Source: Promethearchaeota archaeon Loki_b32 (GTDB taxonomy: Archaea; Asgardarchaeota; Lokiarchaeia; Sigyniarchaeales; SOKP01). From it: a DNA stretch of 38,737 nt. The stretch is from the NCBI GenBank assembly GCA_005223125.1, contig NJBH01000036.1, forward strand, positions 1 to 38,737, read 5' to 3'. Shown here in pieces: positions 1,349-29,641 of this stretch. A program made the position numbers and the translations under genes. The notes below the pieces were generated by a model that saw only the letters and a list, made by a program, of their open reading frames with translations, ran no database searches and had not been told where the DNA came from. The number at the start of each line of letters is the position of its first letter. Position 1 is the stretch's first letter.

Positions 1349-1407
1349 ATTTAAATTTATTAACTATACTTTATATTTAAAATATTTTATAAGAGATTAG
1401 AATCAAT

Positions 1408-1607
1408 ATGACAGAATTTAAAAGAGTAAAGTGTCCTCAATGTGGCAATGAAAATCCACGTAAGCTTCATGAGGAAAACGACAGGAATAATGTGCTTTAT
1501 TACAGTATAGGTAAAGCTAGTTCAGCCTACCGCTGAAGCAGGGCACTCCTGTTTATGCTAAGAATATGAAATGCGGCGGATGTGGCAATATTTTCAAAAA
1601 GAATTAA
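1408..1607 (+). CDS. 56-aa zinc-ribbon protein, spliced: join(1408..1508,1538..1607)
   Basis: Removing the BHB intron gives MTEFKRVKCPQCGNENPRKLHEENDRNNVLYYSMQGTPVYAKNMKCGGCGNIFKKN* with two CxxC pairs. Unspliced, it stops at TGA 1534 and the second CxxC is in another frame. Confidence 0.8.
1509..1537 (+). other. 29-nt BHB mRNA intron
   Basis: Central helix CAGT(1503-06)/GCTG(1532-35); bulges ATA(1507-09) and AAG(1536-38); intron stem GGTA/TACC; exon stems GTGCTTT/AGGGCAC and ACAGGA/TCCTGT. Confidence 0.8.
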
Positions 1608-2370: not shown

Positions 2371-3291
2371 TTACACAGAATTAGCTAAAATTAATGATGG
2401 TTTTGTAAAAATATCTGAAAATTTATTCCAAAACTCTTCTATATCCCATATCTCCTGCTTTTTATATATAGAAGATAATTCCAGAAAAACTTGTTTTATT
2501 ATTAAAGATTGAAAATATGTAATCTTAGGCGCAATAAGCGATAACATATAATCTTTACTTCCACCTCTAAAAGATTTGTCAAGATAAGAATCAAAAAATA
2601 CGTATGACATAATATTAAAGTTTTGTACATTTATCAAAAGACCTTCTGCACGTGTTATATAATCTTGACCATATATAGAAGAAATTACATCGTAGAGCTG
2701 ACTACCAATTTTATCGAGTGGAAAGTCTGATTCAATATCTTTAGGGAAATAATTTTCTAATTTTGGCCCTATTACATCATCCCAAACTACTTCCATTAAT
2801 ACTATTAGATCTTTTTGTTCCTTATAAATAATTTTTTTCTCACTTTCATATGAGGCATAAATCTCATTAATTTTTTTATTTATTAAGTCGGTATTTTTGC
2901 TACGTTTAATTTTACCAGCAATTGTAGCCAATAAATCATCTTCATTAATAGGTTTAGTGAGATAATCATCCGCTCCAAGCATCTTCCCTAACCGAATATC
3001 TTCGGGAGAATCAAGAGCAGACAAAAATATGAAGGGTACATGACAATAGGTTGGGTTATTAGAAACCGCATCAAAAAAGTCATACCCATTCATTTCTGGC
3101 ATCATAATATCACTAATAATGAGATCAGGGCAATCTTTTAGCTCCGAAAGAACTTTTAGCTCCGAAAGAACTTTTAGCCCCTCTTTTCCGTTGTTTGCTG
3201 TAATAACTTGGCACTCGTTAAATTCTAATGTAATTTTAAGATATTTTAAGATATTTGGATCATCCTCGACTATAAGTATTAAGGGTTTCAT
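2371..3291 (-). CDS. Response regulator: receiver domain plus C-terminal possible uDENN/longin-like domain
   Basis: VEDD, ISDIMMPEMNG, GADDYLTKP; C-terminal WDDVIGPKL motif (domain assignment is inference). Confidence 0.8.
   Translation of the reverse strand: MKPLILIVEDDPNILKYLKITLEFNECQVITANNGKEGLKVLSELKVLSELKDCPDLIISDIMMPEMNGYDFFDAVSNNPTYCHVPFIFLSALDSPEDIRLGKMLGADDYLTKPINEDDLLATIAGKIKRSKNTDLINKKINEIYASYESEKKIIYKEQKDLIVLMEVVWDDVIGPKLENYFPKDIESDFPLDKIGSQLYDVISSIYGQDYITRAEGLLINVQNFNIMSYVFFDSYLDKSFRGGSKDYMLSLIAPKITYFQSLIIKQVFLELSSIYKKQEIWDIEEFWNKFSDIFTKPSLILANSV
3135..3178. repeat. In-frame 18-nt tandem duplication (CTTTTAGCTCCGAAAGAA x2 plus partial)
   Basis: Gives LKVLSE-LKVLSE in the receiver domain. 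Confidence 0.85.
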
Positions 3292-12337: not shown

Positions 12338-12860
12338 GTGAGTGAAAAAGGAAAAGTGGTCGTAAAAGCTCTTGTAACAGGGGGCAGTGCCAGTGGTGGA
12401 CCCCCGATTGGCCCTGCTGTTGGTCCTACAGGCATAAACGAAAATCGTCTCGATTTTTGATGCATACATTAAAGACGTAGTCGATGAGATCAACAAGCAG
12501 ACAACAGTTTTCAGAGGCCTAACAGTACCAGTCAGAATTGAATGTGATCCAGAAACAAAGCAATTCGAAATTTTTATTGAAACACCTTCTACAGCATCAT
12601 TACTATTAAAAGAAGTTGGAGTTGAAAAAGGGAGTTCAGTATGTTCAGATGAGAAAATTGGTAATTTAACACTTGACCAAGTTCAAAATGTAGTTGAAAC
12701 AAAACGAGAAAAATTCTTAGATAAAACATATAAAACTGCTTTAAAAACTGTTTTAGGAACAGCTCTATCCGTAGGTTTGACAGTTGAAGGAGAAGATCCA
12801 AGAGTAATTCAAGAAAGAATTAATAATGGAGATTATGATGAAAAAATAAGGGGTGACTAG
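12338..12860 (+). CDS. rpl11: 50S ribosomal protein uL11, spliced: join(12338..12437,12466..12860), 164 aa
   Basis: GTG start; ...GGSASGGPPIGPAVGPTGIN|IKDVVDEINKQT..FRGLTVPVRI...ETPSTASLLLKE...GTALSVGLTVEGEDP; first gene of the L11-L1-L10-L12 operon. Confidence 0.93.
12438..12465 (+). other. 28-nt BHB mRNA intron in rpl11
   Basis: Central helix GCAT(12432-35)/ATGC(12460-63); bulges AAA(12436-38) and ATA(12464-66); 9-bp intron stem CGAAAATCG/CGATTTTTG; in-frame TGA at 12458. Confidence 0.88.
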
Positions 12861-28735: not shown

Positions 28736-29641
28736 TTAATTTTTTCTACAATTTAACCTAATCCTTTTCTTATAAAAGCTATTCTGGTAATTATCTAACA
28801 TTTCGTTAAATAATTTGGCTCCTAAATATAATTTATGATTACCTTTATATGAATAAATCTTATTTTTTATATTGAATTTTTCAGAAATTTGTAATAGAAA
28901 TTTTTTACTACCAGATGTAATTCTAGAAGTTCCTGTTGTGCCATCTCCATCAAAATATCCAAGAAGAAATGCTAAATATAATTCTCGACTTTTTAAAACA
29001 AGTAACTCAATATTTTTAGATTTTGTATTTCCAACAATAAATCTATTTTTTACCAACGTATCTCCTATTTTATCATTTGTAATTCTTATTCTAACAGTAT
29101 TTGATTTTTTGTATTATCTTTTATTCTTAGGATTGATACCTACGGCTACACAAAATTGATCTAAGATAATTTCATCATCTTTATTAATCTCTAAACCTAG
29201 CCTAAGGTTATTTCTTAATTGTGTAATATAACCATCAGCATATAAAAATCCAAGCCAATAAGCTTTTTCTTTATTATCTATATGTAAAAAGTAATCAAGT
29301 TTAATATTTGGATGAAATTTATAGATACGCTCATTTGTACTTCTAAGGCTATTTAAATTTTGATACTTTTCAATTAATTTAATTGCATTATCACATTTTT
29401 TAAGACATTTGCAGAATAAATTAGATTTGATTACCTCTAAATCTTCTAAACTTAATTGAAAATTAGGATTTCTTTTAGAGTTTTTATTAATACGATAAGC
29501 CAAATTAGGAGTATTATTTAAAATTTCACTTAGTTTCCTATAAGATAATACCTTATTACAATAATTATTAGGTGAAATTATTTTCTGTAATTCTAATTTT
29601 AACTCTTTTAAAAGCATTAAAGCTGTATAAGATTTATTCAT
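28736..29641 (-). pseudogene. Free-standing double-motif LAGLIDADG endonuclease-like gene with one in-frame TAA (29114..29116)
   Basis: KAYWLGFLYADG and AFLLGYFDGDG motifs lie in two same-frame ORFs: NPKNKR*YKKSNTVRIRI... Confidence 0.75.

Follow-up and report, generated by a model that had tools for sequence, protein, structure and literature searches.

The zinc-ribbon gene of Promethearchaeota archaeon Loki_b32 (assembly of 4.13 Mb, 29.9% GC) is a 56-aa C4 open reading frame containing a 29-nt bulge-helix-bulge (BHB) intron with the form of an archaeal tRNA intron, and its mRNA must almost certainly be cut and rejoined. The gene occupies positions 1408-1607 of the window, i.e. the whole 38,737-nt stretch of DNA that was analysed; the coordinates of its parts are collected in Table 1. 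We hold it very probable that the insert is a real mRNA intron of the endonuclease type with a relaxed BHB motif, removed by EndA and RtcB. Excision with cuts after the second nucleotide of each bulge joins AT and G into the codon of Met34 and yields a 56-aa product with both CPQC and CGGC, following the pattern CxxC-x33-CxxC; the predicted exon junction (1508 to 1538) reads TACAGTAT followed directly by GCAGGGC. A preliminary description of this DNA had proposed such an intron, and its core elements, the helix CAGT/GCTG, the bulges ATA and AAG and the intron stem GGTA/TACC, lie where it had placed them. Likewise, the claimed Met codon and the union of CPQC with CGGC in 56 aa are recovered when the frame is read after removal of the intron, and translation of the unspliced frame agrees with the claimed 42-aa peptide, which ends at a TGA within the insert.

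Table 1. Positions of the zinc-ribbon gene elements in the window, of inserts in orthologs and of other predicted coding introns (G000, Loki_b32 genome)
Feature	Position	Strand	Remarks
Putative TATA-like promoter region	1366..1385	+	AT-rich block, conserved ~30 nt upstream of the start codon (from alignment)
Exon 1	1408..1508	+	codons 1-33 and 2 nt of Met34; first CxxC; pN/pS 0.12 (35 intron-bearing copies)
Central helix, 5' strand (exon)	1503..1506	+	4 bp; pairs with 1532-1535; 99.3% of cells paired, 35 alleles
5' bulge	1507..1509	+	predicted cut 1508/1509, from BHB rule and ortholog junction
29-nt BHB intron	1509..1537	+	frameshifting; in-frame TGA 1534-36; same site and length in 35 genomes; zero slide
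Intron hairpin	1510..1531	+	outer stem 1510-13/1528-31, inner stem 1516-18/1524-26, 5-nt loop
Central helix, 3' strand (intron)	1532..1535	+	pairing conserved over 35 alleles
3' bulge	1536..1538	+	predicted cut 1537/1538; then invariant A1502.C1539 mismatch (relaxed motif)
Exon 2	1538..1607	+	last nt of Met34 to stop; second CxxC; pN/pS 0.17 in spliced frame
rpl11 BHB intron (predicted)	12438..12465	+	28 nt; gene 12338-12859, single-copy (uL11)
Ortholog insert, G016	after codon 40 nt 1		31 nt
Ortholog insert, L064-66, L126, L135, L137, L253	after codon 41 nt 2		30-33 nt
Ortholog insert, G017	after codon 42 nt 2		30 nt; one helix mismatch
Ortholog insert, L123, L125, L133, L254	after codon 43 nt 1		31-36 nt
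Further predicted coding BHB introns, G000	C4:22687, C20:13198, C24:174992, C32:33892, C36:188607, C45:47178
Weaker coding insert candidate, G000	C27:38065		histone-like
Weaker coding insert candidate, G000	C63:17590		small GTPase
Insert in G023	opposite G000 C67:7176		histone-like

Because the insert cannot slide, its borders follow from the orthologs without any appeal to the fold. Among 54 genomes of the same genus, a 29-nt insert stands at the identical site in 35, the gene is uninterrupted in 13 and 1 has a different intron only; in the remaining 5 the gene is truncated, masked or without match. S-M-Q-G is read across the junction in every one of the 34 uninterrupted orthologs examined, which come from the same genus and from others, and the exact DNA junction predicted from the BHB motif is found in five intron-less copies (L024, L025, L027, L032 and L033). 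The gap between the two kinds of ortholog has the same borders as the claimed intron. Intron-less Asgard orthologs reading YYSMQGTP, named beforehand as the check on the junction, were found, and they align colinearly with the spliced product. There is one copy of the gene, usually placed after that for shikimate kinase whether or not the genome has the intron. A metagenome scan with the junction motif diagnostic of spliced intron-bearing alleles matched one contig; it was rejected as spliced RNA, being a genomic intron-less allele present on 8 contigs, most of which include a convergent opposite-strand gene. Among database proteins, none resembling the spliced product came from an intron-bearing lineage.

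The pN/pS values show purifying selection on both exons and hence a living gene. Public gene callers annotate the 42-aa product only, and paralogous domains are present in the genome, as might be expected if the intron-bearing alleles were pseudogenes, or encoded only the 42-aa half protein, the hairpin being a dead insertion. This explanation is largely refuted, and we give it very little credence: in 35 species-level genomes purifying selection acts on exon 2 when it is read in the spliced frame, both cysteines are kept, the unspliced stop varies, leaving products of about 35, 38 or 42 aa, and the intron stems are upheld by compensatory changes. A ribosome frameshifting or hopping over the hairpin, with no splicing at all, would profit from the hairpin form of the insert and from the 13-nt overlap of the two frames in the Loki_b32 allele. 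However, none of the 35 alleles has a slippery heptamer, two alleles leave a stop-free overlap of just 1 nt and two more one of 4 nt, about 10 extra residues would be put into the invariant SMQG tip, and a shift would not help with the 30-nt inserts elsewhere in the gene, which are in frame and contain stops, all of which makes recoding very improbable. Selenocysteine readthrough of the TGA was also considered and rejected, the resulting frame being without the second CxxC. Finally, some young inserts at other sites lie within 6-9-nt direct repeats, as excision at the DNA level or an assembly artefact might leave them, but the 1509-1537 intron has a 0-nt end repeat and is present in 35 independent assemblies, and the inserts of the gene conform to the BHB register of the RNA, one of them with a mismatch in its helix. 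We consider the chance of either negligible and retain splicing of the mRNA.

Over 35 distinct alleles, 97.8% of the cells of the BHB core are paired, with two-sided changes at 8 of the 13 pairs (25 cells). The structure is better than in 499-500 of 500 shuffles, a test inflated by the relatedness of the alleles, and better than all slid controls. Direct swaps between G-C and A-U in the intron stems are seen in 9 alleles at 1510/1531 and in 5 at 1517/1525, and the intron hairpin shows compensatory changes at 6 of its 7 pairs; a few of the 35 copies have a broken helix pair. A full 4-bp helix combined with an intron stem of at least 4 bp arises at the fixed borders in 0.02% of shuffled introns and at 0.065% of random genome positions, while the folding energy of the intron alone is modest (z -2.1). 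The central helix demands AGY at the codon of Ser33, and all 35 intron-bearing copies use AGY, compared with 16 of the 34 that have no intron (the other 18 use TCN), related genomes not being independent in these counts. This serine is invariant, and its codon has switched repeatedly between AGY and TCN across the family. Within the intron, a second, inner hairpin is conserved and the loop bases are invariant, which is more than a BHB needs.

The closing exon-exon pair which a strict hBHBh' motif has at the 3' bulge is absent, an A.C mismatch standing there in 35/35 copies, and the motif takes the relaxed HBh' form. Conserved exon-exon pairs adjoin it at 1500-01/1540-41. Of the outer exon pairing which the preliminary description had added, all pairs exist in this allele, and the helix between GTGCTTT (1492-98) and AGGGCAC (1540-46) is 93.5% paired, with one covarying pair only and largely under coding constraint. 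The outermost helix, ACAGGA (1481-86) with TCCTGT (1547-52), did not stand: it is unconserved among the 35 copies, two of its pairs being formed in 6/35 and 14/35, and it was removed from the motif. On this comparison the far exon-exon helices are incidental or weak. Rfam gave no match for the intron region up to E=5; a group I or II intron or a described structured ncRNA was rejected on this result and on the length of 29 nt.

Two EndA paralogs and RtcB are encoded in the Loki_b32 genome. The catalytic paralog has the Tyr/His/Lys motifs, is best aligned to the crenarchaeal-type chains 3p1z/3ajv and keeps the loop K-P-R at K44; the second paralog is without the His. We take the best PDB match of the alpha chain, with whose K44 the loop lines up, to be Aeropyrum EndA. 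By these features the host enzyme is of the (alpha-beta)2 type, with the loop lysine that permits relaxed motifs, and together with the invariant A.C mismatch this agrees with the relaxed BHB that had been claimed. Relaxed introns are removed only by (alpha-beta)2 and epsilon2 EndA, via the loop lysine, and the broad-specificity loop is conserved in Asgard (PMC5829648). In the mechanism that we propose, the pre-mRNA would fold into a relaxed BHB with a 4-bp helix, two 3-nt bulges, an intron hairpin and a mismatched closing pair; the (alpha-beta)2 tRNA-splicing endonuclease would cut after the second nucleotide of each bulge; RtcB would then ligate the exons, creating the Met34 codon and a single frame for a zinc beta-ribbon. 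EndA cleavage, RtcB ligation and translation of the spliced RNA are here taken over from established archaeal splicing chemistry; a search of the literature brought to light no biochemical assay in which an Asgard EndA was given an mRNA.

Since intron-less orthologs have the same protein product, the likeliest reading is that the intron is a tolerated passenger which is spliced out constitutively. Alternatively, splicing could be real but regulatory, the availability of EndA and RtcB or an RNA-binding factor gating the protein as in an unconventional stress-splicing switch. The long retention of the intron and the conservation of its inner hairpin and loop would suit such a role, and the splicing of HVO_1309 in Haloferax volcanii appears to affect expression (PMC7714728). 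Nevertheless, 13 same-genus genomes and most other genera are without an intron in the zinc-ribbon gene, one lineage has lost it precisely and unrelated introns occupy other sites elsewhere, which looks like the turnover of a passenger. We regard regulation as unlikely and keep the reading of a passenger.

Across the orthologs, introns occupy five sites in a stretch of 27 nt, located at the tip of the conserved hairpin and on its second strand; at the four other sites the BHB inserts, 30-36 nt in length and independent of the 29-nt intron, restore the frame exactly. Two-intron alleles are found in G016 and G017. The second intron of G016 is a near-copy of the 29-nt intron (24/29 positions; 0/5000 shuffles as similar); the two (L020/L252, C20 12488-12558) lie 17 nt apart, each after CAGTAT, and a sister genome is without the second. 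This apparent intragenic copying would concern an allele found in one assembly, a second having been looked for without result. No further copy of the 29-nt intron stands at another position in the Loki_b32 genome, in the 54 genus genomes (exact pattern) or in viral contigs. Around self-complementary tetramers, exact direct repeats are seen in L135 (9 nt), L254 (8), L253 (7) and L125 (6), the random expectation for a repeat of at least 6 nt being 0.5%. The central helices are palindromic in L123, L125, L133, L135, L253 and L254, and close sisters are without these introns. Target duplication as a route of gain is a lead and not a result, because in a palindromic helix four of the repeat bases are demanded by the pairing itself and because palindromic helices, common in the introns of the zinc-ribbon gene, are uncommon in other Loki_b32 introns.

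In a tree of the neighbouring genes and the spliced gene, the intron-less L127 (1501-1680) is nested with starred support in an intron-bearing clade. With L127 added, the data reject a single clade of all intron-bearing alleles (p-AU 5e-8) and at least 3 changes are required, whereas the first tree, without it, did not reject such a clade (p-AU 0.09). The placement of L127 points to a precise loss, either by a spliced template or by recombination with an intron-less allele. Our wider reading, offered tentatively and held somewhat short of probable, is that Lokiarchaeia of this family possess a genome-wide and actively turning-over population of EndA-spliced mRNA introns, gained by nearby copying at the same 6-nt exon end, as in G016, or by hairpin insertion with a 6-9-nt target duplication, and lost precisely from spliced templates. 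Insertion of a hairpin at a self-complementary tetramer would build the central helix automatically. If true, this would amount to a working prokaryotic cycle of intron gain and loss in the closest relatives of eukaryotes. The five sites, the near-copy and the young repeat-flanked inserts make this tiny gene a test bed for the arrival of BHB introns, the central open problem according to a recent preprint (bioRxiv 10.64898/2026.10.13.758758).

Sequence comparison suggests at least seven mRNA introns in the Loki_b32 genome besides that of the zinc-ribbon gene, hence at least eight in all. The rpl11 intron is present in 15 of 30 genus loci and exactly absent in the other 15. Four loci have further rpl11 inserts, two each (37 and 36 nt, upstream) in L096, L097 and L106 and one in L110. 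A motif-free comparison of Loki_b32 with G023 (2.2 Mb aligned) revealed seven Loki_b32-specific coding inserts of 28-33 nt, rpl11 included, when a full helix and a stem of at least 4 bp were required; the figure is a minimum, since introns common to both genomes and genes outside the alignment are missed. An ab initio scan for BHB motifs plus frame gave 17 candidates in the window and 2088 genome-wide and was discarded for counting introns as too noisy. The zinc-ribbon intron and two unrelated rpl11 introns from relatives have in common a five-base loop, ATTTC or similar (1519-1523 and 12446-12450), which might serve stabilisation or recognition in all of them or might be a matter of chance. 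ARAGORN found only 15 tRNAs in the Loki_b32 genome, consistent with heavily interrupted tRNA genes, and Loki_b32-specific inserts of 30-34 nt are seen in tRNA-like sequence at C4:18301, C4:82067, C29:46433 and C48:102918. Should frame-breaking mRNA introns be frequent in Asgard, the interruption of protein genes and their splicing with the machinery for tRNA would already have been in place in the sister lineage of eukaryotes. It would also follow that many Asgard genes are cut short or overlooked in current annotations; the zinc-ribbon gene itself is on record as a 42-aa fragment.

In the literature outside subscription journals, splicing inside an archaeal coding sequence is documented for cbf5 only, to which the Loki_b32 case would add an Asgard gene. 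For the cbf5 pre-mRNA intron of Desulfurococcales and Sulfolobales, splicing was shown by cDNA (Watanabe 2002; Yoshinari 2006; Yokobori 2009, PMC2738675), introns in other archaeal coding genes being predictions only (PMC2738675). A 2023 review counts two spliced genes (PMC10485636). Both the cbf5 and the Loki_b32 introns are short coding inserts that split a codon of a conserved motif, have a relaxed BHB with a cut predicted between bulge nucleotides 2 and 3, occur in hosts with a hetero-oligomeric EndA and show gain and precise loss across lineages. The Loki_b32 intron differs in belonging to another superphylum (Asgard) and another gene, in being one of at least eight predicted coding introns where cbf5 is single, and in a family with five positions in 27 nt and two-intron alleles; its splicing is deduced from DNA comparison, that of cbf5 from cDNA. 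HVO_1309 has a 46-nt BHB intron whose cutting by EndA was shown experimentally (PMC7714728; PMC10485636). It is likewise a short BHB intron of an mRNA, but it lies in the 5' UTR, leaves the reading frame unaffected and is cut by an alpha'2-type enzyme. The 2026 preprint on Asgard introns is confined to tRNA genes, does not mention mRNA and did not identify a general route by which introns arrive (bioRxiv 10.64898/2026.10.13.758758). The non-canonical Asgard tRNA introns, and the transposed Thermoproteales tRNA introns cited there, share with the Loki_b32-type introns a similar size class, BHB boundaries, repeated independent gains and the same machinery; in contrast, the mRNA intron is accompanied in G016 by a near-copy within the gene, 17 nt further downstream, and some young introns lie in direct repeats.

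A homolog of the zinc-ribbon protein was found in 154 of the 154 genomes searched in the order, a count which includes paralogous domains. The Loki_b32 genome holds seven such domains, mostly C-terminal on low-complexity or coiled-coil-like proteins. The structure model is a zinc beta-ribbon (pLDDT 82), and fold comparison with VIA-align gave weak matches only (Z up to 3.4). In remote searches with the intron-less ortholog L025 as the query, Pfam gave no family above the cut-off, Foldseek no match at E<=0.001 and the Atlas no family, which does not imply a new fold. JGI names such as S27AE/S27E are unsupported by these profile and fold searches. TFIIS/Rpb9, the NrdR N-terminal ribbon and zf-Sec23 have in common with the Loki_b32 protein the CxxC...CxxC arrangement and a beta-hairpin, but the latter has a longer hairpin with an invariant SMQG-PV tip. 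As modelled, it is most likely a small binding module of the zinc-ribbon type, a free-standing version of the C-terminal domain. Because the same domain ends low-complexity or coiled-coil-like proteins in this genome, we lean slightly and on weak grounds towards protein binding; binding to nucleic acid, polymerase or ribosome is a reasonable but less probable role.

Downstream of the zinc-ribbon gene, on the minus strand (1664-2215), lies a small Gtr1/RagA- or Arf-like GTPase, a neighbour unconserved in most relatives. Elsewhere in the window, a response-regulator gene contains an exact 21-nt tandem duplication (3139-3180) resulting in a repeated stretch of 7 residues. Two adjacent ORFs on the minus strand (28736-29641) show, by eye, LAGLIDADG-like motifs and are possibly a broken gene of the homing-endonuclease type. 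The contig end (37915-38737) is foreign-looking, with a transposase-like fragment and the start of a secreted repeat-like protein, and may be chimeric.
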